This document shows positions 3,203-63,678 of a stretch of 64,000 bases of DNA, piece by piece. The stretch lies in contig JAIORV010000097.1 of NCBI GenBank assembly GCA_021107945.1, positions 2,972 to 66,971 on the forward strand. Reading direction: 5' to 3'. Below the pieces are notes generated by a model that worked only from the letters and a program-made list of their open reading frames with translations, made no database searches and was not told the DNA's origin. The stretch comes from Vulcanimicrobiota bacterium (GTDB lineage: Bacteria; Vulcanimicrobiota; JAJTBE01). The position numbers and the translations under genes were made by a program. Numbering within the stretch: position 1 is the first letter of the stretch; the number at the start of each line of letters is the position of its first letter.

Positions 3203-3303
3203 TTCACCGCAAAGACCACAAAGATTAAAAATTTTCTTTGCATTCTTTGCAGGCAACGTAGCGCGGGTCTTCAGACCCGCTAATCATCCTCAGAGCTACG
3301 TTG
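3203..3303. terminator. nested hairpin structures between convergent genes (repeat words plus a stem-within-stem); probable bidirectional terminator
   Basis: ttcaccgcaaagaccacaaag (3203-3223) pairs with ctttgcattctttgc (3236-3250). An outer stem caacgtagc (3254-3262) / gctacgttg (3295-3303) encloses an inner hairpin gcgggtc-ttca-gacccgc (3263-3280). The structure lies between the stop codons at 3194 (+) and 3329 (-). Confidence 0.4.
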
Positions 3304-3328
3304 TATTCAGCAAACCTAAAGGTTTGAG

Positions 3329-6339: not shown

Positions 6340-6467
6340 TTGTAGTCAAACGGCAACTTTCCAGATTGACTTTTTTGGGGAGGATACAAATTAAACCTTG
6401 CAAAATGCAAACAAAAATTCTTTCTGTTAAAGCGTTAAGAACAGTATAATAACGGCGTTTGATGGAC

Positions 6468-6497: not shown

Positions 6498-6531
6498 ATC
6501 TATAAACGTTGGTTATTTTTGGGGTGGTTAT

Positions 6532-7522: not shown

Positions 7523-7778
7523 ACAATAATTTCGCAAAAGGTAGGAAGGGGGGATACTTTGCTTTTCCGGATAGTATTCATGCGGGTTCAAGTGGGTGAG
7601 CATGAAGTGGGCAAGCATGAAGTTGGCAAAATGAAGGGAGTGTGGGGCATCTTTAGGACAAAATGTTTCCAAAACAGGATAATACAGTGCTATTTTATAC
7701 CAAATACGACACGATTTTCTATAACTAAAAAACCCACCGTTTTCTTGAAATGGCGGGTTTTGTTATTGTTTTTGGGAT

Positions 7779-7851
7779 GGGCGGAGAGGGACTTGAACCC
7801 ACGACCTCCTGAATGTAAGTCAGATGCTCTAGCCAACTGAGCTACCCGCCC
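7779..7851 (-). tRNA. tRNA-Val (anticodon TAC)
   Basis: Reverse complement reads GGGCGGGTAGCTCAGTTGGCTAGAGCATCTGACTTACATTCAGGAGGTCGTGGGTTCAAGTCCCTCTCCGCCCA. It folds as a cloverleaf with anticodon loop CTTACAT. CCA is not encoded. Confidence 0.85.
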
Positions 7852-7959
7852 GATGAAAAAATGAAAAATTATCCTTTCCGGGTAATATTCTTTACGATTA
7901 TTTGCCCGGATTTGACAGGAAGGCAGGAATATTTCACCTGCCTCCGTCGATTGTAAAGT

Positions 7960-8032
7960 GACCCCAACGGGATTCGAACCCGTGATCTTCACCTTGAAAG
8001 GGTGATGTCCTAGGCCGCTAGACGATGGGGCC
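7960..8032 (-). tRNA. tRNA-Glu (anticodon TTC)
   Basis: Reverse complement reads GGCCCCATCGTCTAGCGGCCTAGGACATCACCCTTTCAAGGTGAAGATCACGGGTTCGAATCCCGTTGGGGTCA, with anticodon loop CTTTCAA. Confidence 0.85.
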
Positions 8033-8100
8033 GTTTTTTATACCAAAATTATTAACATTCCGGTGGATCTTCCACATAAAACAAAGGCCATCAAATAGGA

Positions 8101-8173
8101 TGGGCCCACCCGGATTCGAACCAGGGACCGATCGGTTATGAGCCGACTGCTCTACCGCTGAGCTATGGGCCCT
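8101..8173 (-). tRNA. tRNA with CAT anticodon (Met elongator or Ile2/lysidine type)
   Basis: Reverse complement reads GGGCCCATAGCTCAGCGGTAGAGCAGTCGGCTCATAACCGATCGGTCCCTGGTTCGAATCCGGGTGGGCCCA, with anticodon loop CTCATAA. The G1-C72 pair argues against an initiator. Confidence 0.8.
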
Positions 8174-8334
8174 CATGTCCTTTGACGCTGTTTATTATAA
8201 TGTAAAACATCCTCCAGGTCAATACCCATGACAAAAATATTTTACAACCAGGTTGACATTTACCCGGACAATGCCTTTAAATTCAACGCAGAGCTCGCAG
8301 AGACCGCAGAGGAGAACTAATAAATATCTGCGAT

Positions 8335-9665
8335 ATTTCCAATATTGAGTCATGAAGTGGGAAGTGGGAAATGGGAAAAAATAGAAATTTTGAGATTTTT
8401 CGATGTTCTTTTATCCGTTGTTCGTTTTGGGGGGTGCGGTGAAGAGAGAGAGAGCCACCGGGAAGACGCTGAAGCGCCTGTTTTTTATAGGGTTGTGTGT
8501 ATTCCCTTCTTCCCCCGGATAAATCCGGGGGTTAGTCTCATGGGAGATCTAAAAACCTCTCATGCCTGACCTCCATCCTCCAGCTTCCATATTCCGTCAT
8601 CCATTACCCTCTGCGTTCTCTGTGGTGAATGGGAAAAAGGAAAAGGGAAAAAAGGAAAAGACCGGGGTTTTGAGGTTTTTCGATACTCTCTTATCCGTTA
8701 TTATTCATTTTCTTCGTGACCTCCGTGGCTTCGTGGTGAATTCCATTCTCCATTCTCCGGACCCCTCTGTGTACTCTGTGCCCTCTGTGGTAAAAAAACA
8801 CTTGTCCTTCGAACCTCTTTGTGGGGTTTGTGGTGAATAAATAAATCTGTCATACATTTTTCACAATCCGTTTTATCGGGATTGGGAAATCCCTCCTACA
8901 GATCTAATCTTTCATGACATCTCCTCAACCTCCGATGGGGACTGGATTTCAGAGGTCAGGAGATGTCCCGGGACAAGGTCTTCAAGCTCCGTTGCTTTGC
9001 CTCGGACATCCGGTTTAGAGGTTTTTCAAATATATGGAAGGGGGAAATGAGAAGCGAGAAATGAGAAAAGAATTTCTCAACTCTCGTCTCCCGATTCTCT
9101 TTTCTTATTTCCACCACACCATTAACCTTCAGAATCTGGAAGCCTCTGAAGAGGCTAAGACGGCGTGGTTAAGCCATTCTCTCTCCACCACAATAAATTG
9201 TGGTGTTGTTCTAAAAAACAATTGCGGTGTTGTTCTAAAATTAATAGTTGCATTATTGTCAATGCACTCTAAATATCACATCCATTTCCATGTAAATGTA
9301 AATGGATATAAAGATTAGCCTACAGATCCGGGCTCGTATTTTTCTTCGTGTCCTCCGTGGCTTCGTGGTGAATTCTATCCTCCATTCTCCGGACCCCTCT
9401 GTGTACTCTGTGCCCTCTGTGGTAAAAAAACACTTGTCCTTCGAACCTCTTTGTGGGGTTTGTGGTGAATAAATAAATCTGTCATACATTTTTCACAATC
9501 CGTTTTATCGGGATTGGGAAATCCCTCCTACAGATCTGGGCTCTATTTTTCTTCGTGTCTGGAGCCTGCGCTGAACTTGTTTCAGTGTGTCTTCGTGGTG
9601 AATTCTATCCTCCGAATTCCTCTGCGATCTCTGCGTCCTCTGCGTTGAAAAACACATCCGAGCTG
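8335..9665. repeat. 1.3-kb mosaic array of short modular repeat words downstream of the tRNA cluster; includes two near-identical ~195-bp direct repeats (8710-8905 and 9343-9537)
   Basis: Contains catgaagtgggaagtgggaaatggg, ctccgtggcttcgtggtgaa, the CCCCCGGATAAATCCGGGGG palindrome, ccacaataaattgtgg+tgttgttctaaaa (twice), and ttatcgggattgggaaatccctcctacagatct (twice). The ORFs the track predicts here are low-complexity translations of the repeats. Confidence 0.8.
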
Positions 9666-9667
9666 TG

Positions 9668-11749: not shown

Positions 11750-11912
11750 GAATGCTTCTCCATTTTTTTGCTTCTTTTTCTTGTGTTTTTTTTACCACAG
11801 AGGTCACAGAGGTAATATCTTAAAACCCTCTGAAACGCCTTAAAATCAACATTTGGTAGTCCCCTAGAAAGATGGACTGAACAGTTACAAAATATGTTAT
11901 TAACCGAAATCT

Positions 11913-12404: not shown

Positions 12405-12621
12405 ATAGGTACACCTCGATATTGTATTATAGATAGCTGTATAGCTTTTTTCATTTCACATCGCCAGGTATTTGAAAGATGTCCCGTTGGCAGAAGTGAC
12501 ACATATAAAACTCAAAAATTATCAATGTCCTCTGTGAGCTCTGTGTCCTCTGTGGTGAATTCCTGTCCTCTGTGGTGAATCCAAACAATCTTCCACCCGG
12601 TTTTGTCTTTTCCTTTAACCC

Positions 12622-17224: not shown

Positions 17225-17535
17225 CGTAGATTTTTTTTTTTTGATCTGCGGCGAGACGCCGCAGCCACCGGCATTGTTATAATGGTGGGGGCGGCGTCTC
17301 GCCGCCCAAACAAGGGGGATATGGGGAATGGGACATGGGAGTCGGGAAGCGGGATCCGTTCCCCTTTGTGGTCTTTGCAATGAAAAACAAATCCGTTATC
17401 GGGACGAGGACGTCCCTCCTATATGGGAAATGGGAAAAGTGATGTGGGAAAGGGGATCCGTCCTCCGTGTCCTTCGTGCCTTCGTGGTAATAAAAAATGG
17501 GATCAGGGCTCCGTTTATCGGGATTGGGAAATCCC
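17225..17535. repeat. mosaic repeat array: T-run, then the GCGGCGAGACGCCGCAG inverted-repeat element, then gggaa/tggga words, then two TTATCGGGA-hairpin-TCCCTCCTACAG modules
   Basis: ctgcggcgagacgccgcagccacc...ggtgggggcggcgtctcgccgc forms a 22-bp-arm inverted repeat. Modules follow at 17395-17430 (stem GGGACG/CGTCCC) and 17510-17545 (stem GGGATT/AATCCC). Confidence 0.8.
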
Positions 17536-17537
17536 TC

Positions 17538-18221
17538 CTACAGTTCTGATACCTGAACTTCGGCCTCAGGCTCTCCTGTCTCCGGCTCCTGACTTCCGGC
17601 ATCTTTTCCCTTGTCTTTATGGGGGATCTTTATGAATTTCATGATCAGGAACCCACCTATAAGTAAAGCCATAAAGGCAATTGTCAGGGTGTTAAAGTGA
17701 TGATCGATAAAGTACTGGATTTTCTCACCGAATATCATGATAAGACCGGCAACCAGGAAGAACCTTGCTCCCCTGCTTATCACCGTTACTATTACAAATT
17801 TCCAGAAATCGACATAAAAAACACCGGCAGATATGGCAAATACCTTGTAAGGTACGGGTGTGAACCCGGCTATCCCGATAGCCCATTCCTCGTATTTCTG
17901 GAAATAACCATGTATCTGTTCAACTCTCTCTTCTTTTACGAATTTCAGGAGGACAGGCTTTCCGCCCTTGATCCCGATAAAGTAACCCAGCATTCCGCCT
18001 GTTACGGATCCCACAAGACATATAAGCGCATATAAAAGCGCCAACTTCGGATTTGCCACGCACATTGCGACAAGCAGGAGGTCCGGTGGAACGGGAAAAA
18101 ACGATGACCCGGAAAACGCCAGAATGAGAAGGGCAATGGGTGCATACGGCGTCTGAGCCCACATGAGAACCCAATCTTTCAGCCAATGTATCCAGTCTAT
18201 TGCATTATGAAACAACTGCAT
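17538..18221 (-). CDS. DedA/YqaA (SNARE-associated, TVP38/TMEM64) family membrane protein
   Basis: FFPVPPDLLLV motif, about five TM helices, and a charged C-terminal tail. Confidence 0.6.
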   Translation of the reverse strand: MQLFHNAIDWIHWLKDWVLMWAQTPYAPIALLILAFSGSSFFPVPPDLLLVAMCVANPKLALLYALICLVGSVTGGMLGYFIGIKGGKPVLLKFVKEERVEQIHGYFQKYEEWAIGIAGFTPVPYKVFAISAGVFYVDFWKFVIVTVISRGARFFLVAGLIMIFGEKIQYFIDHHFNTLTIAFMALLIGGFLIMKFIKIPHKDKGKDAGSQEPETGEPEAEVQVSEL

Positions 18222-19062: not shown

Positions 19063-19336
19063 CTTAATCCTCCGGAAATAATATTTTCAACCTGATATTC
19101 TTTTTCCGGCAAGATATTCCTGTTACATCAGGTTGAGTATCCCGGGGAAGGATTTTATATTGTTTTGCCCGAATTTGTATATGATAGTAGATTCAAAAAG
19201 GAATTAGCTATTTACAATAATAAATGTCGATTTAATTGGAATGACGATAAAACCGCAAAGAAGCAAAGAACGCAAAGAAAGTTATTATTAACCTTTGTGG
19301 TCTTTGCGGTGAATATATTAAAAAGGAGTTTTGCAC

Positions 19337-20632: not shown

Positions 20633-20704
20633 TGGAGGTCGAAATTGTAGGAGGGACGTCCTCGTCCCGATAAACTTAAGCTTTAATAAGGAGCATAATT
20701 AATC

Positions 20705-22074: not shown

Positions 22075-22480
22075 ATTTGAAGGATCAAAATTAACCGCAA
22101 AGAAGCAAAGAACGCAAAGTGGTCTTTGTGGTGAAAAAACAAATCCATTATCGGGACGAGGACGTCCCTCCTACAGATCTGGAGAATTCCAACCTCCGAA
22201 TCCCTCTGTGGTCTTTGTGGTCTTTGCGGTGAATAAACAAATCCGTCGTCCATTATTCGCAATCCGTTTATCGGGATTAGGAAATCCCTCCTATAAAGGA
22301 AAGGGGAAAGGGGACATGGGAAACGAGATCCATTATCCGTCATCCATTATCCATTTTCCAATATCCATTATCCGTTTGTCGAGATGGTCATACAGATTCG
22401 ACCTGCGTCATCAGTTTTCCGAATCCCTCCGTGTTCTCCGTGGCTTCGTGGTGAATGGAAAAAGAGAAAAGGGATTCTTC
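22075..22480. repeat. mosaic repeat array (ccgcaaagaagcaaagaacgcaaag words, two TTATCGGGA-hairpin modules, atccattatccg words)
   Basis: Modules at 22155-22190 (stem GGGACG/CGTCCC) and 22262-22300 (stem GGGATT(A)/AATCCC). ccattatccgtcatccattatccattttccaatatccattatccg lies at 22320-22380. Confidence 0.8.
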
Positions 22481-28959: not shown

Positions 28960-29100
28960 TCTAAGGAAATAAGGAAATAAGGAGAATACAGAGGACATGG
29001 AGTTTTTTATTTTTAGATTCTTCGTGAATTTCGTGACTCTGTGGTTAAATCCTGAAAAATCTCTGCGAACTCTGCGCTCTTTGCGGCGAAAAAATTCCAA
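28960..29100. repeat. repeat-word array inserted between the sigma and anti-sigma genes
   Basis: Contains ggaaataaggaaataaggagaatacagaggacatggag, then ttcttcgtgaatttcgtgactctgtggttaaa, then ctctgcgaactctgcgctctttgcggcgaa. Confidence 0.7.
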
Positions 29101-30744: not shown

Positions 30745-30972
30745 TATTCTAATGTAGGAGTGGCATCCTGCCACGAACAAATGTCTGCAGGCAATAATTG
30801 TTTTATTGCAGGAGCGGTTTCCTAACCGCGATAAGAAAAGAGCCAATAACGAAAATATCGCCTTTGGAAAAGGCTCCTACAAAACTTCTGCAATCCCCTA
30901 ATCCATCCGGCATGGGCAAAAACAACAAGAATTAATAATTGAAATGTCAATCCAGACCATTTATTTCCGGAT

Positions 30973-33349: not shown

Positions 33350-33935
33350 TATTTACCTCCTATTTATGGAAAATGGGAAATGGGAAATGGGAAATGGGAA
33401 ACGGGATGCGGGAAACGGGAGATGAGAAGTGGGAAATGGGATCCGGTCTCCGTTTTCTTTATTTCTTCACCGGGAAGCCACTGAAGTGGCTGAGATAAAG
33501 AGCAAGAAAAGGGTGGGATTTCCTTCTTCCCCCGGATTAATCCGGGGGTTAGTCTCATGGAGGTTTAAAAACCTCCGCTACCAAATTTCCGCTCTCCGCT
33601 ACCCGACCTCTGTAATCCGTTCTCCATTCTCCGTCAATATTCATTTTCTTCGTGTTCGGAGCCTGCCCTGAATTTATTTCAGGGCGGCTTCGTGGTGAAA
33701 AACAAATCCGTCCTCCGTATTTCAGCCTCTGATTTCCGTTTTCCGGCCTCTGGACTCTTTTATCCGTTCTCCTTTTCGAGCATTTTTTCCTGAAACCTTC
33801 CTATAGGCAAAAACGGCGGAGATTTAACCCGCCGTTTTTCTGAGAATATATTAACAATTTTTTATCCGTTATCTGTCATCCGTTATCCATTGTCCTTTTA
33901 TCGGGATGGGGACATCCCTCCTACAAATCCGTTAT
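33350..33935. repeat. mosaic repeat array occupying the position where pheS would be expected
   Basis: Contains tggaaaatgggaaatgggaaatgggaaacgggatgcgggaaacgggagatgagaagtggg, the gccactgaagtggc hairpin, the CCCCCGGATTAATCCGGGGG palindrome, the GGAGGTTTAAAAACCTCC palindrome, and the ttatcgggatggggacatccctcctacaaatccg module at 33895-33935. Confidence 0.8.
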
Positions 33936-33938
33936 CCG

Positions 33939-35144
33939 TTACAATGGGTAGTCCTCCGTCGCTTTATACCGCCAGTCGTAAAAGAATTGTTGCTCAAACT
34001 CGTTTGTAACTTTCTCATCTTCTACATGTGCCCCGATTTCCCGGTTGATATTTAGCCCCTTGTGAGACCAGTTTGCTGAGCCTATCAAGAATTTTTCACC
34101 GTCCACCGTTGCCCACTTTGCATGAAGCTTCTGACCTTTTTCTACCTTGAACCACCGAACCGGGACGCCCGCTTTTTTTAATATATCGAAACTTTTTCCA
34201 TTGGGACTCCATCCTGTATATGCAAAATTGGGATCCAGTATAACCCTGACATCGACCCCTCTTTTATGCGCCTTTTTAAGTTCTTTGATAACCTTTTTAT
34301 TTGATAATACATACAACTCGGCGTGAACTGATTTCTTGGCTCCCTTTATGCTCTCGAGAATCGCCTTTTGCATCGTCTTATCTTCACGCAACTTAGTGCG
34401 CAATCCCATGACGACAGCCTTTTTTCCGCTATTAGCCGCTTCGTCGTCGAATTTCCCGGGTTTTATTTCTTCCCCGGATGATAAATTCCATCCCTCTGCG
34501 AAGTACTCGCTATAATAATTGACTGCAGGCCCTTCAATTTGTATGTCGGCGTCGTGATTTTTCTTTGAATAGGTGTTCCAGTTCATTCCGCCTAGCATTG
34601 CCTTTTTCCCGTCAACAATCATGAGCTTTACATGATCGATCTGGTTTCTTCCCTTGTCAACAGGAAACTCAACTACATTCACGCCGTTCTCTCTCATTAA
34701 TTCCCGCATTTCCCTGCGCAACCTTGATCCTCTTTTTGAAGAACCTGACGTGGGGTCAACAATTACCTTTACATCTACTCCCCTCTTGACAGCTGCAATC
34801 AATTTCTGGGCCATTTTCATATCCTGGAAATCATACATCTCAACTTTTATATTTTCTTTAGCTGAGTCAATCATTTTCTCCGTTGCCTTGAAAATTTTAG
34901 CTCCGCCTATTATAGACTTGATTTTATTTCCTGATGTCACAACCGCTTCCGGGCAATTAAGAGTGGTTTCGTCCTCAATGTTAAGCTTGAGCTCCGATTC
35001 AATAACATCAACACTAAGAGTCTCCGGGGGCTTGGCGGATTTTAGTGCGCCTGACAAGGGAATATTCTGTTTGAGATGATTGATTTTCACAGAAACCTCC
35101 AATATTCTACATATATTATATAACATGTGACCATGGAAATACAA
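33939..35144 (-). CDS. phospholipase D superfamily protein with two HKD motifs (cardiolipin-synthase/PLD-like)
   Basis: HVKLMIVDGKKAMLGGMNW and HAKWATVDGEKFLIGSANWS are two HxKxxxxD motifs. The N-terminal start is uncertain. Confidence 0.8.
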   Translation of the reverse strand: MYFHGHMLYNICRILEVSVKINHLKQNIPLSGALKSAKPPETLSVDVIESELKLNIEDETTLNCPEAVVTSGNKIKSIIGGAKIFKATEKMIDSAKENIKVEMYDFQDMKMAQKLIAAVKRGVDVKVIVDPTSGSSKRGSRLRREMRELMRENGVNVVEFPVDKGRNQIDHVKLMIVDGKKAMLGGMNWNTYSKKNHDADIQIEGPAVNYYSEYFAEGWNLSSGEEIKPGKFDDEAANSGKKAVVMGLRTKLREDKTMQKAILESIKGAKKSVHAELYVLSNKKVIKELKKAHKRGVDVRVILDPNFAYTGWSPNGKSFDILKKAGVPVRWFKVEKGQKLHAKWATVDGEKFLIGSANWSHKGLNINREIGAHVEDEKVTNEFEQQFFYDWRYKATEDYPL

Positions 35145-39428: not shown

Positions 39429-39888
39429 TGCCAAAAAGTATTCACCTCTTTCTATCTAAAAAAATATAGAAAACAAGCAAGAACTCATTTTCTTGCATAT
39501 TAACGGAATATTTCCTTCCCCCCTTTCTATTATTCATGTAAAAATCCTCTTTAGCAAAAACAGATTATGACATAATGGCAATTATTTTACTTTTTATTAA
39601 CAATTTTCCCTTCACTTCTCTCCATGATTTTGTTAAAATAATCACAGGACACATTCGAATACGGAAGAAATACTAATTATTCACCGCAGAGTTCGCAGAG
39701 GGCGCAGAGCTTCAAATGAAGTCAACACTTTTAACCATTATTAATTCGATAATACTTGGGTAGAGGCTGGTTTCCTCACCAGCCTGAAACTGTGTGAAAT
39801 CAAGGTTTAGAAATCTCCAATAAAAAGAGGGCTGAATAGTCATAGAAAATATTTCCATCTAAGCGGAGCGAAATAAAAGAGAATAATT

Positions 39889-41784: not shown

Positions 41785-42180
41785 AATAAGGACCGGGAGC
41801 GGAATAAGGAAATTAGAGAATGAGGAATTTTGCCGCTTAGGAAATTAGGAAACCAGGAAAACGGATAGCTGAGGACGGATCCCGTTTCCCGATTCCCGCT
41901 TCCCGCTTCCCGCTTCCAAAATGGTAGCGGAGGTTTTTAAACCTCCCATGAGAATAACCCACGGATTTATCCGGGGGAACAGGAGGAATCCCAATCCCCA
42001 TGTCTCTCACACAAACCTTCAGACGCTTCAGCGTCTTCCCGGTAAGGAAATGAAGAACTGTTACCTCTGAGGAAATGAGGAAATAAGGATTATGGAAACG
42101 GAGAATGGAGGTCGGAGGTCGGAGGTCGGATCCCATTTCCCACATCCCCTTTCCCACTTCCCTTATGGGAAACATATGAA
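41785..42180. repeat. mosaic repeat array between coaD and gmhA
   Basis: Contains ggaaataagga/ggaaattagga words, cccgcttcccgcttcccgcttcc, the GGAGGTTTTTAAACCTCC palindrome, ggatttatccggggg, and ggaggtcggaggtcggaggtcgg followed by cccatttcccacatcccctttcccacttccc. Confidence 0.8.
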
Positions 42181-42815: not shown

Positions 42816-42956
42816 CTGATGATGGAGGATCGGAGGGCGGAGGACGGATCCCATTTTCCACTTCCATCTACCAAAAAGCCCACGGAGTTTTTGATTTAAA
42901 ATTCTCCGTGAACTCCGTGACTTCGTGGTGGTCAAATCCCATTCGACAGTCTTATA

Positions 42957-43403: not shown

Positions 43404-43512
43404 TATTACTAAAGATTCATCTGAGAAATTTTGACAAAATCATAATAGCAATTTTACATTCGCGATTAATATCCTTCTCACCTCCCATTTCTCACCTCTC
43501 GTCTCTCATATC

Positions 43513-45285
43513 TCACTTCTCAATAAACGCGTAGATATAGCCCCCTGTAGTTGTTACATATAAAAATCCGTCCGACACAACAGGAGCGGAGCGAATCGGC
43601 GAGTCGAGTTTTTCCTTCCAGACTGTTTCCCCGGAATCTATGGATCTGCAATATAAATACCCGGAGTTGGATCCAAAAAACACGAGATTGTTGCTGACAA
43701 TTGTGGGTGTAGAGAAAATAGCGTCCAGGAGTCTGATTTTATCATTTTTCATCCGCCAAATCTCGCCTCCCGCCCTGAGATCAAGCGCAACCAGGTATTC
43801 GTCCTGGGTTCCTATAAATATTTTCCCATATCCCACCGAGGGGGATCCTTCCACAACACCGTCCAGGTCAACGGCATAAACCCATGAGTCTTCCCCGGTT
43901 TTTAATGAGAGAGCGTAGAAGTGTCCCGACCTGTCCGGTATATAACAATGGTCGTTACACACCGCCGGTGTGGATATAAAACGATGCTGAAGGGGATGGT
44001 CTGCGGGAAACCGCCATATCTCCCTGCCGGTCCCGGAATCCACGCAGAAGACCCTGCCATTCCGCGATGCGACAAAAACCATATTCTCAAATATCGCCGG
44101 GCTCGATAATATCTCGCGTCCTTCCTCGTCAAGGGCGCATTCCTCTTTTCCATTGCCGTTTTCGCCGGACTCAAATTTCCATATTACCTTGCCGGTTTCC
44201 AGGTCAAGTCTGTAAAGCTCTCCCCGGTTATTGACTACGAAAACCCCCTGTTTGCAGGCGAGAATATTTGCCGTTATACTTCCAATATTTTCTTTCCTTT
44301 TCCGGGGAAATACCCAGGCAGGCTTCCCTTTTTGGGCATCACTTGCATAAACCTTGCCGTCACAGGATCCGGCATAGATAATATCATTGTAAATTGCGGG
44401 GGTAGATGCGATAAAACCACTCGTGGGGCGTTTCCATACAACAGCTCCGGTATATTGATTGAGAGCATGCAGGTTCATATCGCCTGAGCCGTAATAGACA
44501 AGACCTTTATATACGATTGGAGATGAAAGTATGCCGGCTATTTGTCTTTTATCAGGGTATGTCCATTTTCTCTTAAGGGCCGGAGTTATTTTCTGACTGC
44601 TGTTTCCGGTACGTTGGGGGTCTCCCTTGAACATGGGGTAACTCCTGCCGTCGAGTTCCATCTTCTTATTGCAATGAATACATTTATTTTTCCATACATC
44701 CGTATATCCCCTACATTCAGAGCAAGTTCGCAATTGGCGATTGCATTCGGGGCAAAAGTTTAAATTTTCTTTAATTGTTTTACCACAGCCGATATATGGG
44801 CATTGAATTATGGGCTTCAGATTAATGCTGGTCTCCCTGTGGAATTCCTTGCAAAGATCAAATCCACAACCGACGCAGAATTTTGCCCCGGGTTTCGATG
44901 TGAGAGTGCCGCAACGTGGACACCGGCTAATTTTCATCTCGACTGTTTTTTTAACGCCACCGGGTGAAGGAGGGAGTATTAACCTCAGGGGCTTTCTATT
45001 CGAGCCGGGAATATCCTTATAGACCCTTGTTTTATCATCCGGCAGGGGATCGGCGGCCTTATGCCAATCCTCCTTAAGGGGTCTGCCCATTGTAGTGCAA
45101 AACCGCGCGGTTATCCTGTGAAAACGCCCGCAAAGAGGGCATTTTCTCTTCTCCTGTTTAGTTTTTTTCAACTCTTTTTTTCTCATATTGTGTCCCGGAA
45201 TCCTGATGTTTTTAATATTCTGCAATTTATAAATTGAATATATTTTACCATTTAGAGTAATACCCAATTTCCGTTGGAAAACCAC
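43513..45285 (-). CDS. multi-zinc-ribbon protein fused to a PQQ-like beta-propeller
   Basis: Four CxxC...CxxC ribbons in the N-terminal 200 aa (CPLCG, CPRCG...CVGCG, CPYIGCG...CPECN, CSEC...CIHC). PQQ/BamB-type repeats (YAGS.DG.VYA.D..GK..W.F) follow. Confidence 0.6.
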   Translation of the reverse strand: MVFQRKLGITLNGKIYSIYKLQNIKNIRIPGHNMRKKELKKTKQEKRKCPLCGRFHRITARFCTTMGRPLKEDWHKAADPLPDDKTRVYKDIPGSNRKPLRLILPPSPGGVKKTVEMKISRCPRCGTLTSKPGAKFCVGCGFDLCKEFHRETSINLKPIIQCPYIGCGKTIKENLNFCPECNRQLRTCSECRGYTDVWKNKCIHCNKKMELDGRSYPMFKGDPQRTGNSSQKITPALKRKWTYPDKRQIAGILSSPIVYKGLVYYGSGDMNLHALNQYTGAVVWKRPTSGFIASTPAIYNDIIYAGSCDGKVYASDAQKGKPAWVFPRKRKENIGSITANILACKQGVFVVNNRGELYRLDLETGKVIWKFESGENGNGKEECALDEEGREILSSPAIFENMVFVASRNGRVFCVDSGTGREIWRFPADHPLQHRFISTPAVCNDHCYIPDRSGHFYALSLKTGEDSWVYAVDLDGVVEGSPSVGYGKIFIGTQDEYLVALDLRAGGEIWRMKNDKIRLLDAIFSTPTIVSNNLVFFGSNSGYLYCRSIDSGETVWKEKLDSPIRSAPVVSDGFLYVTTTGGYIYAFIEK

Positions 45286-45394
45286 TGAAGTGGTTAAATC
45301 AAGCGAAAAAGGGTGGTTATGCTTTTCCTTCCACCATAATAAATTATGGTGTTGTCTTAAACCGCTTTTCTATCGAGCTTCCTTTTTTGCATTT

Positions 45395-48190: not shown

Positions 48191-48239
48191 GTCGCAAAGC
48201 TTCATCCCTGGAACTTAAGCTATTTCTACAAGATAATGT

Positions 48240-48440
48240 CTTGTTATTAGGGCGGCGAGACGCCACCCCCACCATTCTTTTGTTATTTGGGCGGCGGGAT
48301 GCTGCCTCTACCATTATATCAACATAGGTGGCTGCGGCGTCTCGCCGCAGTTAAAAAAGGATAATACTTATTTGAAACAGCTTATCCTTTTTCCCATTTC
48401 CCATTTCCCATTTGAAGCAGGGTTCAATCGACGGAAATAG
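48240..48440. repeat. GCGGCGAGACGCCGC inverted-repeat element (inverted orientation, larger loop) plus tttcccatttcccatttccc words
   Basis: gggcggcgagacgccacccccacc...ggtggctgcggcgtctcgccgcag, then ttttcccatttcccatttcccatttgaag. Confidence 0.75.
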
Positions 48441-49771: not shown

Positions 49772-49900
49772 AACAAAGAATGGATGTCGGAGAACGGGAG
49801 CCGAACTCTACCACGAAGTCACGAAGGACACGGAGTCTTTATAAATGATGGTTCTTCGTGAACTCCGTGGCTTCGTGGTGAAAAACCTTCGTTCTCCCTA

Positions 49901-52556: not shown

Positions 52557-53111
52557 AAACTCAACTCCATTCTTCTTTTATCCCAACCATGCTAATTATA
52601 CAATAAAAAGGGACGAAATAAAAGTGTTGCTTATTAATTATTCTCCTGTCTATTTCTACAATTTTCCAGAAAAAACATTCCCATTTTTTGTTTGTATTTT
52701 GAATTATTTGCAAGAAATACTTCCAACTTTTCCTTTTCAACTCATATCTTTCACCGCAGAGGACGCAGAGAGCACAGATCTTAATTGAGCAGGACTTGCG
52801 CATTTTGTCGTTGCGAGGAGGCGAAGCCGACGAAGTAATGACAATATTCCCGGTAAAAAGTGCTAAACCATAGCTTAACATTGACAATGTTAATATTGGA
52901 ATAAAAACCCTGAATAGGCTGACTAAAAAGTGTGTTGAGTCATCCTGAGCAGGAATATTTTCCTTGAATATTTGTTGCAACATGTTATAACTCCACAAAA
53001 AAACCTGGCAACATATTCATCGGGGCGTTTGTTGTAAATTATCGAACGGCAGGAATTTATGACAAATTGAAAAAACATTGTCCTTGACTATTAATATTTA
53101 ATTTAAGGATT

Positions 53112-58019: not shown

Positions 58020-58120
58020 CTTTTTGATCTGCGGCGAGACGCCGCAGCTACCGACGTTGTTATACCGCATTGTTATAATGGTGGGGGCGGCGTCCCGCCG
58101 ACCAAATAACAAGACATTAT
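58020..58120. repeat. third copy of the GCGGCGAGACGCCGCAG inverted-repeat element, preceded by a T-run
   Basis: ttctttttgatctgcggcgagacgccgcagctacc-gacgttgttataccgcattgttataat-ggtgggggcggcgtcccgccgacc. Confidence 0.75.
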
Positions 58121-58154: not shown

Positions 58155-59336
58155 ATGAACGAAAACATTCAACAACTTATTACAAAGGCGGAAAGTCAAT
58201 TAAAACGCAGGGAATATCGTAATGCCAGGCTTCTCTTTCAGGAAGCGGCCATACTTGCCCGGGACGAAAGGGACTTCCCATCTGCCGCCGATAATTTTTA
58301 TGCCGCCGGGACTGTTTCATATAAAGAAGGCAATATTAAGGATGCTATAAAGAATTTTCAAAAGGCGGGGAAAATATATTATAAAACCGGTGATAAGGAG
58401 CACCTGGCGGATGCGGGCTTTAACATAGGAAAATTATATCAGGAAATTGGAAGGCCCGAGGAAGCGGTGGAGCACCTGCGTATGGCTTATGATGTATATA
58501 GAGAACGCGGGGATATTGAAGACCTTGGCGACGCCGGGTACAACCTGGGACTTGTCTATCTGGATCTCGACAACACACAGGACGCTTACGATCCATTTTT
58601 CACAGCACTTGATTATTTCGAGGAAATGCATGAGGATGAGAATTTTGCCGATTGCATCTATCAAATCGGGAAAATGTTTTACATGGGAGGAAATCCTTCA
58701 CCGGCAAGAGAGTATTTCACTAAGGCGGTTGAGTTGTTTGAAAAACTTGGAATTGAAGACAGCAAAGCCGACAGTCTTTTTAAACTGGGGAACATATTCC
58801 TGGATATGGAAAAAACCGAGAATGCCCGGGATTATTTTAAAAAAGCTTTAAAAATATATACAAAGCTTGGCGAGAAAAAATACATGGCAGAAACCCTCAT
58901 AAATATGGGAACTGCAGATGAAGCTGAGTGTAATAATGAATCCGCTCGGGATATGTATAAAAAGGCACTCTCGTTATTTACTTCCCTGGATGATGAAGAG
59001 GGCAGAGGAGATGCTTTTTACAACCTTGCTGCCATGGAAAATGAATCGGGCGATTTTATGGAGGCGCTCAAGTTATTCTCCCTTGGCATGTTCTCCTATA
59101 AAAAATCCGACAATTTAGAGAACGAGGGTGATTCAAACCTTAGAATCGCCGGGATATATCGCAGTATGAATGATATGGATAATGCACTCTTCTTCTATAA
59201 AAAATCTATGATCTGCTTTGAAAAGAGTAAGAATTATAACAGGGCTAAAGAAGTGAGGGAGTTGATGGAGAAACTGATGACGCAGAACGGAGGACGGATT
59301 ACGGAAACCAGAGGTCGGAGGTCAGATGATGGATGA
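58155..59336 (+). CDS. TPR repeat protein (at least eight TPR units); C-terminus encoded by a repeat word
   Basis: Regular A..Y/F.....G.Y..A...F.+A 34-aa periodicity. The last 15 codons (ggacggattacggaaaccagaggtcggaggtcagatgatgg) match the ggaggtcgg repeat family. Confidence 0.7.
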   Translation: MNENIQQLITKAESQLKRREYRNARLLFQEAAILARDERDFPSAADNFYAAGTVSYKEGNIKDAIKNFQKAGKIYYKTGDKEHLADAGFNIGKLYQEIGRPEEAVEHLRMAYDVYRERGDIEDLGDAGYNLGLVYLDLDNTQDAYDPFFTALDYFEEMHEDENFADCIYQIGKMFYMGGNPSPAREYFTKAVELFEKLGIEDSKADSLFKLGNIFLDMEKTENARDYFKKALKIYTKLGEKKYMAETLINMGTADEAECNNESARDMYKKALSLFTSLDDEEGRGDAFYNLAAMENESGDFMEALKLFSLGMFSYKKSDNLENEGDSNLRIAGIYRSMNDMDNALFFYKKSMICFEKSKNYNRAKEVRELMEKLMTQNGGRITETRGRRSDDG

Positions 59337-61539
59337 TGAAAAATGGAAAGTGGATCTCGTTTCCCCCTTCCCCCTTCCCCCTTCCCCCTTCGATATAACT
59401 CTTGTAAACATCGTATTCCCCACTGATATAGGCACAAAAAAATACTACTACGTACCCGTAGGCGTACTTTCCCTGGCTTCATTCCTGGAAGAAAACGGTT
59501 TCTCCGCCGAGGTCCTGGACTATCAGCACGCGGTACATCCCCAGCTCGATAAACCGGAGAGTTACTATGAATTTCTTCTGAAAGCTAAATCAGATATTAT
59601 CGGGATCAGTGTGATGGCAAAAGATATGCCCGGAGTGATAATTGCATGCCAGATGCTGAAAAAGAAATATCCTCATAAGATCATCATTCTTGGCGGGCCC
59701 GGCCCCACAGGTGTGGCGAGAAAGTTGATGGAAGAATTCCCGTTTATCGATTTCGTTGTCCGGGGCGAGGGAGAATATACACTTCTTGAGCTGATGAGGA
59801 CGGTTTGTCGGAAGTCGGAAGATAGAAAATGGATGATGGAAAATGGAGAATGGATGACGGAGAACGGATCCCCTTTCCCACGTCCCTTTTCCCATTTCCC
59901 TTATGGGGGGGATGTCCCCGTCCCGATAAACACTGACAACGACACGGAATCTGACATTTTTAAAAATATAAAAGGCCTTATATATAGAAAAGGCAGCAAT
60001 GTAAAAGTTAACCCACAAAGAGAACGCATTGAAAATATCAATAATCTTCCTCTCCCGGCCTATCACTTAATCAACCCCAATAAATACAACCTTGTTTATT
60101 TTCCATCCACAAGAGGATGCAGACATTTCTGCACTTTCTGCGATCAGCCCGCTCTTTGGCAGGGGAAAGAAATCAGCAAGTCTCCGGATAGTGTTTTTAA
60201 TGAAATCGATTATATTACAAGAGAATTAAATGCGAAATGGGAGGTTGCCTTTTCCGACAATGAATTCTGTGCGGACGAGGAAAGATTCGTGGAATTTTGC
60301 CGCCGATACAAAGATGGAGGGTACAGATTCCATTTTTCAATGGATCGAAGGATAGATTCAGTTGACGAGGATTTCCTGAAAGCCGCCCGCAGTGTCAATT
60401 GCCGCTTGACATTATACGGCGTCGAATCCGGAAGTGACAGAGTTTTAAAAGAGATTAGAAAAGGATTCAAAAGTGAAAACATAAAATCTTCCCTTTTGCT
60501 GTCAGCAAAATATATGGATAACACCATTGCATCATTTATGTTCAATTATCCTTTTGAAGAATTGCGGGACTTCATCGCCACGCTGAATATAATTTATTCA
60601 CTCTGGCATAAACCCACCAGAAATTTTATCACATTTCAACTTCATTACCTGTCTCCACTACCTCGTACCCCGATATTTGAGAAATACAGAGATACGCTTG
60701 TCAGGCGCGATGTCTCGAACATGATGATATCAGGGCAAAATGAAACGCAGTATGAACAAGTTATAGATTATGAGAAGAATAAAGTGGCCGTACTGGCGAA
60801 GGTGTTGACGGAGGACGGAGAACAGAGAGCGGATCCCGCTTCCCATTTCCCGCTTCCCATTTCAAGCATTGTTGACAAATACCCTGATATTTTTGTCCCA
60901 TATTATACATACAAATCACCAGATCTTGACGTGAAGGAACATCTCATAAAATGCCTATATGTCGCCCTTGAGATTGATTTACAAAACGTATTGTTTAGGT
61001 ATGGTGATAATTTTATATACTTCGGGCAAGAAGAGATAAAATTCGAGGGCAAATTCGAGGAGGAAAGAGCTGACACCGTCTATTTCAAGCTTACCAGGAA
61101 TTTCTTTGACAAACCGGAAAGACTCCTGAATTTTCTGAAATCCAAGGGAAATGAAAAATATATCCTCTTCTCCGTTGACCTTGAAGGCGTTCCTGAAGAC
61201 AGGGACACGGGAGACAAGCTTTGCCAATTCCTGGAAGACCTCCGTATGGAAGGATTCAAATTCAAGCTTCTTTCCCATATTCCCCGGAAATATTTCAGAT
61301 TTACCCGGTACCTGAAAATGGAATCACAATTCAACATGCCTGTGGATCCTATATCGGCGCATGATTTCTTCTATGTTGACGAAAAGGGAAGAGTGTGCAC
61401 ATTCGACGGAAATAAATTGGACTATGTATGGGAATATGAAAGCAGAGAAGAGATACAACAAGCTATAGATGAAAATGAGAACCGGGAAGAGGACAAAATT
61501 AAAGAAATTAGAAAAAAAGATACATGCTCAGAAAAATGA
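59326..61539 (+). CDS. B12-binding domain radical SAM enzyme carrying three in-frame repeat-word insertions
   Basis: B12-binding region (IIGISVMAKDMPG...IIILGGPGPTG...FVVRGEGE). Radical SAM cluster motif RGCRHFCTFC (CxxxCxxC). Repeat-derived segments lie at 59341-59396, 59815-59933 and 60808-60866 without breaking the frame. Confidence 0.7.
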   Translation: MMDDEKWKVDLVSPFPLPPSPFDITLVNIVFPTDIGTKKYYYVPVGVLSLASFLEENGFSAEVLDYQHAVHPQLDKPESYYEFLLKAKSDIIGISVMAKDMPGVIIACQMLKKKYPHKIIILGGPGPTGVARKLMEEFPFIDFVVRGEGEYTLLELMRTVCRKSEDRKWMMENGEWMTENGSPFPRPFSHFPYGGDVPVPINTDNDTESDIFKNIKGLIYRKGSNVKVNPQRERIENINNLPLPAYHLINPNKYNLVYFPSTRGCRHFCTFCDQPALWQGKEISKSPDSVFNEIDYITRELNAKWEVAFSDNEFCADEERFVEFCRRYKDGGYRFHFSMDRRIDSVDEDFLKAARSVNCRLTLYGVESGSDRVLKEIRKGFKSENIKSSLLLSAKYMDNTIASFMFNYPFEELRDFIATLNIIYSLWHKPTRNFITFQLHYLSPLPRTPIFEKYRDTLVRRDVSNMMISGQNETQYEQVIDYEKNKVAVLAKVLTEDGEQRADPASHFPLPISSIVDKYPDIFVPYYTYKSPDLDVKEHLIKCLYVALEIDLQNVLFRYGDNFIYFGQEEIKFEGKFEEERADTVYFKLTRNFFDKPERLLNFLKSKGNEKYILFSVDLEGVPEDRDTGDKLCQFLEDLRMEGFKFKLLSHIPRKYFRFTRYLKMESQFNMPVDPISAHDFFYVDEKGRVCTFDGNKLDYVWEYESREEIQQAIDENENREEDKIKEIRKKDTCSEK

Positions 61540-62201
61540 AAGAAAAAGACATACCGTTCGTTGTGGAATTGCATTCCGGATATATCCCCGGCGCGCTGTT
61601 TCCAAAGCTGGGAAATAAATTCATGCATGCTCTTTATCACACGATGATTGACATGGATTGCGCGGTAAATTACGTATGGGAAATAGAAGTTGAAGATTGT
61701 AGGAGGGACGTCCCCGTCCCGATAAACGAAGGTCGGAAGTCGGGAGCTCCGAAACATAGAGGAGAAGACAAGGAATCTGAAGCCAGAACCGTCGCATTTA
61801 TTACTGCAACAACCGACTCGTCAGTTCTTTTCCGACAGGTACTCATCAAGAATTTCCCGCTGTTTGTATGGAGAACATTTCTATATTTAATGGGAAATCC
61901 GCTAAGAATAAGAGAGGTCTGGGAAACGGTCACATACTCGAAACTGGCGAAAGTCCCCGATGTTACCGCCGAGCTTCTATTCATTGCAATAGATAAAAAT
62001 TTCCGCAAAAAAAGTATATCAGACGACCTTGTAAACAAATGTCTCCAATGGGCAAAAGAAAAAGGTCATAATAAAATAAAAGTAACCACGTATACAACTA
62101 ATCACGGGGCAAATACACTTTTGGAAAGACTTGGTTTCAAATGTGCAAGAAAAGAGCCCTTCCGCGACAAGGAAATAAATTTGTATGTCCATAATCTATG
62201 A
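61524..62201 (+). CDS. GNAT-family N-acetyltransferase with an in-frame ~30-codon repeat-word insertion
   Basis: ELLFIAIDKNFRKKSISDDLVNKCLQWAKEKGHNKIKV is GNAT motif A. 61698-61790 (aggagggacgtccccgtcccgataaacgaaggtcggaagtcggg...) is a TTATCGGGA-hairpin module translated as EDCRRDVPVPINEGRKSG. Confidence 0.65.
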   Translation: MLRKMKEKDIPFVVELHSGYIPGALFPKLGNKFMHALYHTMIDMDCAVNYVWEIEVEDCRRDVPVPINEGRKSGAPKHRGEDKESEARTVAFITATTDSSVLFRQVLIKNFPLFVWRTFLYLMGNPLRIREVWETVTYSKLAKVPDVTAELLFIAIDKNFRKKSISDDLVNKCLQWAKEKGHNKIKVTTYTTNHGANTLLERLGFKCARKEPFRDKEINLYVHNL

Positions 62202-62209
62202 CAGGGAAA

Positions 62210-62400
62210 TAAGGAATACCAGGAATATTGCCTCTCAGGAAATTAGGAAATAAGGATAACAGATAACGAAAATTTTTCACCACGAAGCCGCGGAGTATGT
62301 AGGAGCACACTATAATAGGGACGTCCTCATCCCGATAAACGGATAATAGAGGATGGATAATGGACGGCAGAGGATGGGCGGCGGAATTTCACTTCAATAT
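62210..62400. repeat. mosaic repeat array downstream of the GNAT gene
   Basis: ggaaataaggaa/ggaaattaggaaataagg words, ttcaccacgaagccgcggag, and a gggacgtcctcatcccgataaacgg module (stem with a G.T wobble). Confidence 0.75.
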
Positions 62401-62908: not shown

Positions 62909-63678
62909 TATATTTTCCTCCAGCCTATATTTTAGAATTTGAAACTATCGAAATTACAACTATATTATAGTCCGCATTGCGAGGAACATCAATTAACAAA
63001 ATGTAAACAATTGCTATATTATTGTTAAAAAAAAGGTAACTATTCACCGCAGAGGGCGCAGAGAGCGCGGAGAGAAGAAAAAGAGGAGAACTTTCATATA
63101 AGTACTTACGCAAAATGAGGAGTGAGTCCTGTCATACTGAAACAAGCCTGCCCTGACGAAGGCCAGGGTTCAGCACAGGTTTCTGAGCGGTACAAGAAAG
63201 AACGTAAGCATTCAGTCCTCCCTTGCAGGAGTAGCATCTTGCCACGAAAATCGAGGCTGGAAGCCTCTCCTTCAGTGATGGGTCTGAATAAATACTTAAT
63301 TTTTATACTCGAAAATCGGTATTCAGAATTTAGTGAATAGCAGACAATGCTTCTAATCCTCTGCGCCTGCACTGAGAATTCTCTGATTTATCTCTGTGCT
63401 CTCTGTGTTCTCTGTGGTAAAAAAACATAGGGGCTGAACAGTAACAAAAAAAAATTTTAAGTGTAGGGACTGCGAAAAATCGATAATGTCAAAATAAATT
63501 CATGAATCTATAGAAGGGAATGTTGCATAGCTAAAGAATTAATTATCTATACTCCCAAAATATGACACAAAGGCTCAGATTAGGACTGAATTATAGTATC
63601 TATATGCAGGGATCACCAGTTCTTGCTCAAGCAAATGACAAAATAGCGGGAGTATATAAAAAATGAGGAGGGATATGT

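Follow-up and report, generated by a model that had tools for sequence, protein, structure and literature searches.

The closest described counterparts of the repeats considered here are the GTAG-tagged repetitive extragenic palindromes (REPs) and their paired forms, the REPINs (REP doublets forming hairpins), for which the published comparators are Di Nocera et al. 2013 (PMC3733652) and Bertels & Rainey 2011 (PMC3116915). GTAG REPs carry the tag that names them, have subfamilies with complementary stems and frequent G-T pairs, occur in dimers and clusters, lie just 3' of open reading frames (ORFs) where they may donate a TAG stop, and are also found inside ORFs (PMC3733652). TAACTGA heptamers, present in Beggiatoaceae, Cyanobacteria, and Bacteroidetes, represent one short direct repeat shared across phyla with no known mechanism (PMC4679880). 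The bacterial interspersed mosaic elements (BIMEs) of Escherichia coli are intergenic mosaics that combine a small vocabulary of palindromic units with fixed linker motifs. Cyanobacteria reportedly carry short tandemly repeated repetitive (STRR) heptamers and small dispersed repeats, described by Mazel in 1990 and Elhai in 2008. We compared these systems with a 64-kb stretch of DNA, hereafter the window, from a Vulcanimicrobiota bacterium (GenBank assembly GCA_021107945.1, contig JAIORV010000097.1, positions 2,972 to 66,971), in which an initial annotation had noted a family of intergenic hairpin 'words'. The GC content is about 43% across the window, and the nearest homologues of one window protein were from metagenome-assembled genomes (MAGs) named Eremiobacterota, Vulcanimicrobiota, or Firmicutes. 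The finding is real, denser than usual, and mostly of a known kind: the hairpin words are REPs of the GTAG-tagged superfamily, and together with REPINs and short tandem arrays they make up a BIME-like mosaic. Literature searches returned no account of REPs in Eremiobacterota, and the host phylum was not found in the published surveys; the window widens the range of the GTAG REP superfamily to a candidate phylum that has been little studied, and the copies there are very dense.

The first hairpin class, F1, reads (C)TGTAGGA-[6-bp stem]-TCC(Y)-[stem']-GATAAA(C) on the strand opposite to the module described initially. A covariance model recovered 15 copies in the window, where at least 11 had been claimed, at 10 separate loci and with 13 copies intergenic, a density of about one copy per 4 kb. 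It found one more copy just outside the window in a second assembly (ENA ERZ26872897, locus L061, which spans window positions 1-18907) and single copies in the relatives L050 and L058; the copy counts given here cover the window plus 1.4 kb more of the same genome. Pairing was tested on matches selected only by the unpaired scaffold TATC-N6-(N)GGA-N6-TCCTAC with at most two mismatches. This search gave 17 matches, 13 of them with perfect 6/6 Watson-Crick stems, when the chance of a perfect 6-bp stem is 1 in 4096 per match. Seven stems were found (GGGATT, GGGACG, GGGATG, GCCTTT, GAGGCT, GCGGTT, and GTGGCA), all 6/6 paired, and a further one, GTGAGC, occurs in a distant relative. In an alignment of 11 F1 sequences, pairing held in 98.5% of the cells with double changes at four of the six pairs; the covariation score was matched by none of 500 shuffles, and slid controls paired in just 47-59%. 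Perfect hairpins with a GTAG tag numbered 16, compared to 0-8 (mean about 2.7) in 20 Markov controls.

The compensatory stem changes proposed in the initial annotation were thus borne out both on a proper alignment and in the scaffold-only search, and the covariations of ccactgaagtgg and ccacaataaattgtgg were likewise found. They fit known REP biology, because complementary stem subfamilies are a published hallmark of GTAG REPs. The covariation is statistically solid, but some of the 'G.T variants' counted toward it could simply reflect CpG-to-TpG transitions and not wobble pairs kept by selection, as the T/C change between CTCTGCG and CTCTGTG falls at a CpG. A scan of metagenomes with the GGGA-type F1 scaffold returned seven loci, none from this organism, and the IMG/VR database gave no match to GGGA-type F1. 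Four of the seven (L051, L052, L054, and L055; GC about 55%) represent one conserved locus of an unrelated organism, in which GGAAGGT/AGGAAAT heptads are followed by TTTATCGGGA-N10-TCCCTCCTAA with no hairpin. F1 flanks can therefore exist without the stem.

Two further hairpin classes were recognized. F1 has a 6-bp stem and a 3-4-nt loop, with the tag variants GCAG, ATAG, and GAAG in diverged copies, while F2 has an 8-bp stem and a 2-nt loop and takes the form GTAGC-[GSRGGTYT]-loop-stem' at 3258, 33559 (minus strand), and 41924; F2 is also present in L050 and L058 with other co-varying stems. F3 is an inverted doublet with inward GGT(G/A)G tags, each reading GGTGG or GGTAG followed by the stem. 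The F3 copy at 17245-17306 folds into one hairpin (-29.5 kcal/mol, z = -7.0), and relatives of it are found at 48236-48356 and 58026-58100. Two inverted REPs with a short spacer and a single long hairpin are what define a REPIN, and F3 has this structure. The classes together share with GTAG REPs the short stem-loop, which in that superfamily spans 20-40 bp with a stem of 6-13 bp, the unpaired GTAG (or GTGG/GCAG) tag at one end, the dinucleotide spacer and, opposite the tag, a conserved motif like that of GTAG-1/2 REPs, complementary stem subfamilies with G-T pairs, and many dispersed, mainly extragenic copies as singles, dimers, and clusters. They also share the sites just 3' of ORFs, the donation of a TAG stop, and the intragenic in-frame copies. 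Unlike published GTAG REPs, those of the window vary far more in their stems while scaffold and loop stay fixed, are strictly sense oriented, and are embedded in heptad and nonamer arrays. The window resembles the BIMEs of E. coli in its overall makeup, but its largest cluster is mostly unidirectional rather than alternating, and its linkers are tandem 7/9-nt arrays. The units of 8282-9649 and 22091-22455 all point one way; two REPs are forward and one reversed at 30746-30888, a group of three that had been overlooked.

All 23 loci listed initially hold the sequences described there. Words such as CTYYGYGGTGAA (at most one mismatch), TCCCTCCTACAGATCT, and TTTATCGGGA gave 31, 6, and 28 matches, respectively, when 1.9, 0.56, and 8.8 were expected from shuffles. 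The tandem periods of 7, 9, and 14 nt are specific, with 11, 9, and 14 arrays compared to at most 0.5 in Markov shuffles; the remaining lags within 4-15 nt gave 0-5 arrays. Three statements had to be narrowed. The family was called genome-wide, whereas the sequence read covers 64 kb plus 1.4 kb of this genome. The repeats were said to fill nearly every intergenic region, but a conservative catalogue placed them in 21 of the 38 intergenic regions of at least 50 nt (about 24 by eye, roughly 60%). They were also taken as one family of hairpin words, whereas at least five repeat classes are present, several of them unrelated, and the words made of heptads or nonamers are in themselves tandem repeats and not hairpins.

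The heptads are nearly all NGGANNN on the purine-rich strand (GGGAAAT, CGGAGGT, CGGATAA, CGGAAGT, and others) and are commonly laid out as [purine heptads]-GGATC(C)-[pyrimidine heptads]. The palindrome GGATCC marks eight such junctions (17352, 17454, 33439, 41877, 42128, 42846, 59866, and 60831). Folded as RNA, these blocks scored no higher than their dinucleotide shuffles, with z between -2.7 and +2.5, and the idea that the heptad arms are selected hairpins was dropped. As with STRR and TAACTGA heptamers, the units are intergenic tandem heptamers at many loci (11 + 14 arrays of period 7/14, compared to 0.3 in shuffles), and small hairpins are nested in other repeats (33650-33699 and 62304-62345). 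The window differs in its units, NGGANNN and CTYYGYGNN, in the many unit types per genome, in the purine-GGATCC-pyrimidine layout, and in a nonamer array that is fixed at three units with a GGTGAA cap. The heptad units differ from STRR1-3. A cyanobacterial origin, with STRR or HIP1 repeats, was ruled out: GCGATCGC is absent from the 64 kb, and the window proteins exactly match a Candidatus Eremiobacteraeota MAG (MCD4784100-140). Nor do the repeats resemble a CRISPR array, being 7-9-mers set end to end or irregular units of 150-630 nt, without a regular alternation of repeat and spacer.

The nonamers form 23 arrays in the window, each with 2-3 units of CTYYGYGNN and a GGTGAA cap. They stand alone or as inverted pairs with the caps outward (3203, 19250, 22091, 49809, and 63043/63392), and the hairpins at 19250 and 49809 folded with z = -5.5 and -4.6. 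We considered that the arrays might be promoter-proximal and aimed at gene starts, and rejected this: 10 point to starts and 13 to ends, and divergent contexts were uninformative. The heptads TTATCCA/TTATCCG (22328-22373 and 33862-33941) correspond to bases 1-7 of the DnaA box TTATCCACA and the nonamer cap TTCACCACA to its last part, which may be coincidence.

Strand bias relative to the flanking genes was tabulated from ORF and F1 coordinates, with convergent regions judged by the nearest gene. GTAGGA came first on the mRNA-sense strand in 8/8 copies in unidirectional or intragenic contexts, and in 13/14 when the nearest genes of convergent regions were added. Genes on both strands of the 64 kb obey this rule, and the orientation therefore follows transcription, not replication. 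Five F1 copies were recorded as starting 0-15 nt past a stop codon (listed as 17508, 20639, 30746, and 33891, plus 30800, this last at 56 nt), and in copy 17508 the GTAG supplies the TAG stop of ORF 17538-18221 (minus strand). A sense-oriented F1 has UAG or UAA in two of three frames, yet both intragenic copies are sense. The sense bias favors an RNA-level role or a transcription-coupled insertion bias, between which the choice is one of inference. With its conserved scaffold, freely co-varying stems, and strict mRNA-sense orientation, F1 is an unusually clean case that bears on whether REPs are selfish DNA or RNA-level regulators.

The orientation would also agree with the hairpins and arrays being selected cis-acting RNA elements rather than mobile DNA, that is, 3'-untranslated region (3'-UTR) stabilizers, RNase III or terminator-like sites, or modulators of translation termination, kept in place for their structure and single-stranded motifs. 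Such a reading, which we judge unlikely, accommodates the sites just past stop codons, the conserved F1 scaffold and loop with stems free to vary, the high conservation of one nonamer-bearing region in a relative, and the ORFs that end near GGTGAA caps in IMG/VR (both below). It does not sit well with orthologous intergenic content that is swapped wholesale between related species, with in-frame copies within ORFs, or with identical multi-copy 198-nt units. Most hairpins also have no following U-tract, the heptad blocks fold no better than shuffles, and Rfam gave no match to the repeats; only three tRNAs reached the gathering score in an Rfam scan of the window, and 8150-9750 yielded chance-level matches only.

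We instead favor, with moderate confidence, a BIME-like mosaic in which the GTAG REPs F1, F2, and F3 are probably spread by a RAYT (REP-associated HUH tyrosine transposase) and likely act as 3'-UTR hairpins, accompanied by slippage-prone arrays and a separate nonamer element. By analogy with other bacteria, the REPs would move as single-stranded hairpins with the help of a RAYT whose gene lies outside the window. Copying would take in the whole palindrome for each stem subfamily, and the apparent compensatory changes would arise because of this. Inserted copies would survive mainly just 3' of genes and in one orientation relative to the mRNA, where they most likely serve as 3'-UTR RNA hairpins that influence mRNA stability or translation termination. 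The heptad and nonamer arrays would expand and contract through slippage and unequal recombination; they are gained or lost blockwise, and linkers and loops of proteins tolerate them in frame. The nonamer array stands apart as an element of fixed size, usually three units, and common to several phyla.

Several observations weigh against this mosaic model. No Y1/RAYT domain was found in the window ORFs (no Y1_Tnp match), nor any HUH...Y--NP ORF across the 1.7 Mb of retrieved loci, and the mobilizing enzyme is thus proposed by analogy. Seven stems that differ at up to five of six positions under a fixed scaffold and loop are more diversity than is usual for one REP family, and this diversity fits selection on structure at least as well as it fits subfamily copying. 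Strict sense orientation is no known general property of RAYT-driven spread. The heptad and nonamer arrays lie outside REP biology and are not explained by it, and the fixed nonamer array size (three units in 60/97 IMG/VR arrays) argues against simple microsatellite slippage. The differences between assemblies sit in repeats, where metagenome assemblies are least reliable.

Turnover was followed in the second assembly and in relatives. L061 is 99.93-99.99% identical to the window over 18.6 kb. It differs structurally in only two ways, both inside 8282-9649: it has one more unit, of about 181 nt, and it lacks a heptad block of about 62-67 nt. The additional unit is not a trivial collapse, because it is about 92% identical to its neighbor. 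In L050, at about 80% nucleotide identity, the orthologous intergenic regions carry different repeats (72 nt vs 391 nt and 428 nt vs 153 nt); its heptads are GGTTATCA and GGAAGTC, and the GTAGC REP type of the window is there too. L062 and L049, at about 90%, share the vocabulary at other sites, and at one site L062 has an F1-like REP that the window lacks. Such repeats are few in relatives that are more distant (about 53% protein identity). The nonamer-bearing region at 11750-11912, upstream of a FAD/Fe-S oxidoreductase gene, is 97% identical to L049 4762-4950, with flanking genes at about 90%, which suggests purifying selection or recent exchange.

Repeat clusters also create new protein segments in frame, and the copies at 59283-59936, 60808-60863, 61675-61773, and 25701-25734 had been overlooked. 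A 737-residue B12-binding radical SAM protein (NCBI annotation) holds a heptad and REP cluster at residues ~160-212, between two domains; the insert is missing from 7/9 aligned homologues, and the other two have different inserts in the same linker. The same protein has a heptad-encoded N-terminal extension and a loop replaced at residues ~494-513. A GNAT protein carries a REP and heptads at residues ~50-83, and a third ORF (25670-27256, minus strand) has a heptad array at its end. In-frame insertion at tolerated protein sites, adding 20-50 residues, is likewise known from Rickettsia palindromic elements (RPE) and intragenic REPs; their sequences are unrelated, and the window inserts are composites of heptads and REP. 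The ends or starts of ORFs 5310-5654, 59326, and 58155-59336 (all plus strand) run into arrays, and the annotated N- and C-termini are therefore partly repeat-encoded and may be over-extended.

The region at 8282-9649 has a tRNA cluster (Val, Glu, Met) on one side and, on the other, a FAD/Fe-S oxidoreductase gene with its 3' end toward the region. It is enclosed by a 32-nt nonamer inverted repeat, 91% complementary, with arms 1304 nt apart that both carry unusual TTCAAC/GTTGAA ends. Within it are two direct copies of a 198-nt repeat, which lie 632 nt apart and are 98% identical, and several units that each end in GGTGAA. A three-hairpin composite of about 110 nt occurs in three copies with a co-varying first stem, and a two-hairpin element in two; IMG/VR held no match to the composite-element palindrome. 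Such a bounded 1.37-kb region could indicate that the nonamer arrays are terminal inverted repeats of non-autonomous transposons resembling MITEs (small transposable elements with inverted repeats), moved by a DDE transposase, with 8282-9649 as a composite with nested cargo. A second inverted pair (63043/63392), the short complete palindromes at 3203, 19250, 22091, and 49809, and a nonamer-hairpin block of about 120 nt that is missing from L050 and flanked by an imperfect 17-19-nt direct repeat are all compatible with this. We nonetheless regard it as very unlikely. Most arrays are solo half-sites (62/97 in IMG/VR), and no consistent short target-site duplication was seen, including at 8282/9649 and 63043/63421. 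No transposase was found in the window, no related insertion sequence was found, and no gene is common beside the arrays in 80 viral loci. Units of 9 bp are short for the binding sites of DDE transposases. The initial likening to REP/BIME or Correia elements holds as regards REP/BIME for the hairpin modules. The Correia/MITE half is weak: an inverted-repeat-bounded non-coding segment and small palindromic units are shared, but that is one 32-nt inverted repeat, the target was not seen to be duplicated, be it TA or another sequence, and solo arrays are in the majority. As to the block missing from L050 (19175-19313 compared to L050 4560-4650), the flanking repeat is of the ribosome-binding region (TAGATTCAAAAAGGAATT / TATATTAAAAAGGAGTT) and is too long for a usual target-site duplication.

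The vocabulary was at first not recognized, a statement that needs revision for the nonamer word, which recurs in other phyla. A scan of IMG/VR for CTCTGYGNNCTCTGYGGTGAA returned 106 stretches, compared to 3 for a reversed-order control, and the CTTTGYG variant gave 20. The array-bearing contigs (loci L063-L142 and L180-L197) are diverse phage-like sequences with GC of 0.38-0.71; a search of 80 viral loci for a common neighboring gene found no family in more than 7. Among 97 distinct IMG/VR arrays, 60 had three units, 35 had two, and 2 had four. Their flanks are T-rich, an inverted partner lies upstream in 35, and an opposite-strand ORF ends 1-15 nt from the cap in 17/28 cases. Bacteroides ovatus (L169, NZ_CP081918.1 96277-96351) has a perfect 30-nt-arm hairpin between gmd and fcl, and Gemmatirosa kalamazoonensis (L170) has the element at 19 places on each of two megaplasmids with the ends GAACC/GGTTC; further annotated records are from B. 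finegoldii, Calothrix PCC 7716 (L175), and Pseudoalteromonas shioyasakiensis (L176). A relaxed nonamer pattern found no arrays in 328 kb of unrelated genomes and 23 in the window. None was found in INPHARED phages or in 5,426 E. coli genomes, and neither Rfam nor literature searches by sequence and topic gave a description of the array. The nonamer word is thus not lineage-specific: at least four other bacterial phyla have it, as do more than 100 phage-like contigs, a cross-phylum distribution that it shares with the TAACTGA heptamers. A fixed-size array common to distant bacteria and phage-like contigs could be matched to a protein by phylogenetic profiling.

One candidate for that protein comes from published work. 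TnpA-Y1 subclass 2.1 is the second largest group, is widespread but patchy across phyla, and has a Bac_DnaA_C-like helix-turn-helix (HTH) with no identified cognate REP (PMC6006769). DnaA domain IV binds the 9-mer TTATCCACA, and the C-terminal HTH of RAYT group 1 resembles domain IV (PMC6006769). The triple nonamer, (CTYYGYGNN)x2-3 with GGTGAA, solo or as a 30-nt-arm palindrome, might represent a class of extragenic elements that spans phyla, has so far gone undescribed, and is served by a protein of its own, for which RAYT group 1 (subclass 2.1.2) would be a candidate, a proposal from sequence comparison that we consider quite unlikely. If true, the large RAYT group 1 would gain its missing DNA partner, and a repeat common to phages and distant bacteria would be explained. 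A related idea, that the heptad and nonamer arrays are DNA iterons and that the nonamers are bound by the orphan cross-phylum RAYT group 1 (TnpA-Y1 subclass 2.1.2) through its DnaA-domain-IV-like C-terminal HTH, is highly improbable in our view. The array size is fixed at three units in contigs of 38-71% GC. Read in a TTCACC-first register, the units are TTCACCACA / GAGGACACA / GAGNNCACA, all with C(A/G)CA at the end; at 7/9 positions the first of them agrees with the DnaA box TT[AT]TNCACA. This is a resemblance of sequence only, no such protein was found in any retrieved locus, and dozens of sites per 64 kb, some within ORFs, would be unusual for regulatory iterons. The published terminal inverted repeats beside subclass 2.1 genes (GGGGWSAS) are also unrelated to the nonamer motif (PMC6006769).

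Could the repeats be an assembly or chimera artefact of a metagenome bin? Short-read contigs do break inside repeats, and the two assemblies disagree within 8282-9649. The chance of this is vanishingly small, and independent assemblies already refute it. Logan contigs from two other sequencing runs match window positions 9364-14922, 22426-33584, and 30624-33582 at 99.95-100% identity, and the repeat loci recur at 99.9-100% identity in three independent read sets and assemblies. Related species use the same vocabulary, and the nonamer word is found in finished genomes from other phyla. The repeats are real and multi-copy, because the independent Logan contigs and L061 reproduce the loci and the Logan contigs terminate within them; the repeats explain the fragmentation of assemblies in this lineage. 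A contig scan of sequenced genomes with TCCCTCCTACAGATCT gave only 45 single chance matches in unrelated taxa, and a protein search with a spurious ORF across the repeats had as its sole match the same locus in the second assembly.

Table 1. Repeat features of the window, by position.
Feature	Position	Strand	Context
Nonamer-array hairpin (TTCACCGCAAAGACCACAAAG / TTCTTTGCATTCTTTGC)	3203..3251	.	9 nt past stop of ORF 1962-3194
GTAGC REP (GTAGC-GCGGGTCT-tc-AGACCCGC) nested in CAACGTAGC...GCTACGTTG	3258..3326	+	z = -6.1
Second hairpin with CTAC tag	3311-3326		after the GTAGC REP
Nonamer array + GGTGAA	5327..5347	-	then + strand purine heptads to ~5395
Left arm of 32-nt inverted repeat (TTCAACGCAGAG...)	8282..8313	-	
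Heptad array GGGAAGT/GGGAAAT	8354..8377	+	
Three-hairpin composite copy 1: AGACGC-TGAA-GCGCCT, CCCCCGGATAAATCCGGGGG, degenerate GTAGC-type REP	8457..8565	+	
Nonamer array + GGTGAA	8609..8629	+	
198-nt repeat copy 1: nonamer arrays 8712-8740, 8765-8794, 8817-8837; REP F1 8866-8907	8708..8905	+	
[Purine heptads]-GAATTTC-[pyrimidine heptads] block	9028..9101	+	missing from L061
Two-hairpin element: AGCCTC-TGAA-GAGGCT and CCACAATAAATTGTGG + T-rich tail	9141..9215	+	
198-nt repeat copy 2: nonamer arrays 9344-9372, 9397-9426, 9449-9469; REP F1 9498-9539	9340..9537	+	
Right arm of 32-nt inverted repeat (...CTCTGCGTTGAA)	9618..9649	+	
Nonamer array	11791..11811	-	in intergenic region conserved in L049
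Nonamer arrays, two GGTGAA ends	12530..12579	+	
REPIN-like doublet CTGCGGCGAGACGCCGCAG-CCACC...GGTGG-GGGCGGCGTCTCGCCGCC	17245..17306	.	
Heptads-GGATCC junction, then nonamer array 17364-17384	17323..17384	+	
REP F1, stem GGGACG	17389..17430	+	
Heptads-GGATCC-nonamers	17423..17486	+	
REP F1, stem GGGATT	17508..17549	+	
Nonamer-array hairpin	19250..19313	.	within ~120-nt insertion missing from L050
REP F1, stem GGGACG	20639..20680	-	14 nt past stop of ORF 19331-20632
Nonamer-array hairpin	22091..22135	.	
REP F1, GGGACG	22141..22182	+	covariance model
Nonamer array	22204..22233	+	
REP F1, GGGATT, loop AGGA	22261..22302	+	covariance model
Heptad arrays GGAAAGG, then ATCCATT/ATCCGTC	22298..22373	+	
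Nonamer array	22427..22455	+	31 nt from stop of ORF 22486-24126 (-)
Heptad array TCCCGAA	25701..25734	+	inside 3' end of ORF 25670-27256 (-)
Octamer array (TAAGGAAA) + nonamer arrays 29020-29048, 29061-29090	28962..29090	+	
Three REP F1, stems GTGGCA, GCGGTT, GCCTTT	30746..30888	.	first 10 nt past stop of ORF 29125-30744
Heptad array GGGAAAT, ~11 units, ends GGATCC	33366..33446	+	
Three-hairpin composite copy 2, incl. GTAGC REP 33559-33581 (-)	33466..33585	+	
Nonamer word split by nested hairpin (GCCTGCCCTGAA...TTTCAGGGC)	33650..33699	+	
TTATCCG heptads around REP F1 (33891-33932, stem GGGATG)	33862..33941	+	14 nt past stop of ORF 33939-35144 (-)
Nonamer array	39680..39709	-	
Octamer + heptad arrays, composite copy 3 (GTAGC REP 41924-41946), GGAGGTC x3-GGATCC-TCCCAYT heptads	41837..42175	-	
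Heptads-GGATCC-heptads, then CTCCGTG-unit hairpin	42824..42935	+	
Heptad array TCTCACC	43476..43522	+	
Two-hairpin paralogue: AACCAC-TGAA-GTGGTT; CCATAATAAATTATGG	45280..45360	+	
Two REPIN-like units, then TTTCCCA heptads (48390-48413)	48236..48413	.	
Nonamer-array hairpin	49809..49882	.	19 nt from stop of ORF 49901-50908 (-)
Nonamer array	52750..52770	-	
REPIN-like doublet, duplicated spacer, tag CTACC	58026..58100	.	
[Purine heptads]-GGATC-[TTCCCCC x4]	59283..59395	+	covers both the ORF 58155-59336 end and the ORF 59326-61539 N-terminal extension
In-frame purine heptads-GGATCC-pyrimidine heptads + REP F1 (59895-59936, -)	59807..59936	+	B12-radical SAM ORF
In-frame heptads-GGATCC-heptads	60808..60863	+	B12-radical SAM ORF, residues ~494-513
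In-frame REP F1 (61691-61732, -) + heptads	61675..61773	+	GNAT ORF 61524-62201
Octamers, nonamer array (62276-62295, -), REP F1 with 12-nt internal insertion (62304-62345, -), purine heptads	62205..62385	.	
Inverted nonamer pair (63043-63072 -, 63392-63421 +) around 320 nt	63043..63421	.	
F1-like REP, stem GAGGCT	63241-63281		inside the 320-nt segment

Some further features of the window and of the compared loci were recorded. Relative to window 12405-12735, L049 (1354-4291) has, in addition, a gene for an N6/N4 DNA methyltransferase and an ORF of 362 residues, which sit between the orthologues of ORFs 11913-12404 and 12736-13371 and resemble a restriction-modification-type island. In the distant relative L058 (a 7.6-Mb contig with very few repeats), a group II intron reverse transcriptase at 14471-15799 adjoins the syntenic region. 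A HEPN / nucleotidyltransferase pair of the toxin-antitoxin type is encoded at 15113-15834 (minus strand) of the window and is followed by a serpin gene at 15887-17122. At 7590-7636, about three copies of a 15-nt tandem repeat, AAGTGGGCAAGCATG, adjoin the tRNA cluster and are unrelated to the other words. The segment 63100-63380 holds several hairpins (GCCTGCCCTG...CCAGGG and the F1-like REP) and an 88-codon ORF without a Pfam match, and it may encode a small non-coding RNA or be what is left of a decayed element.

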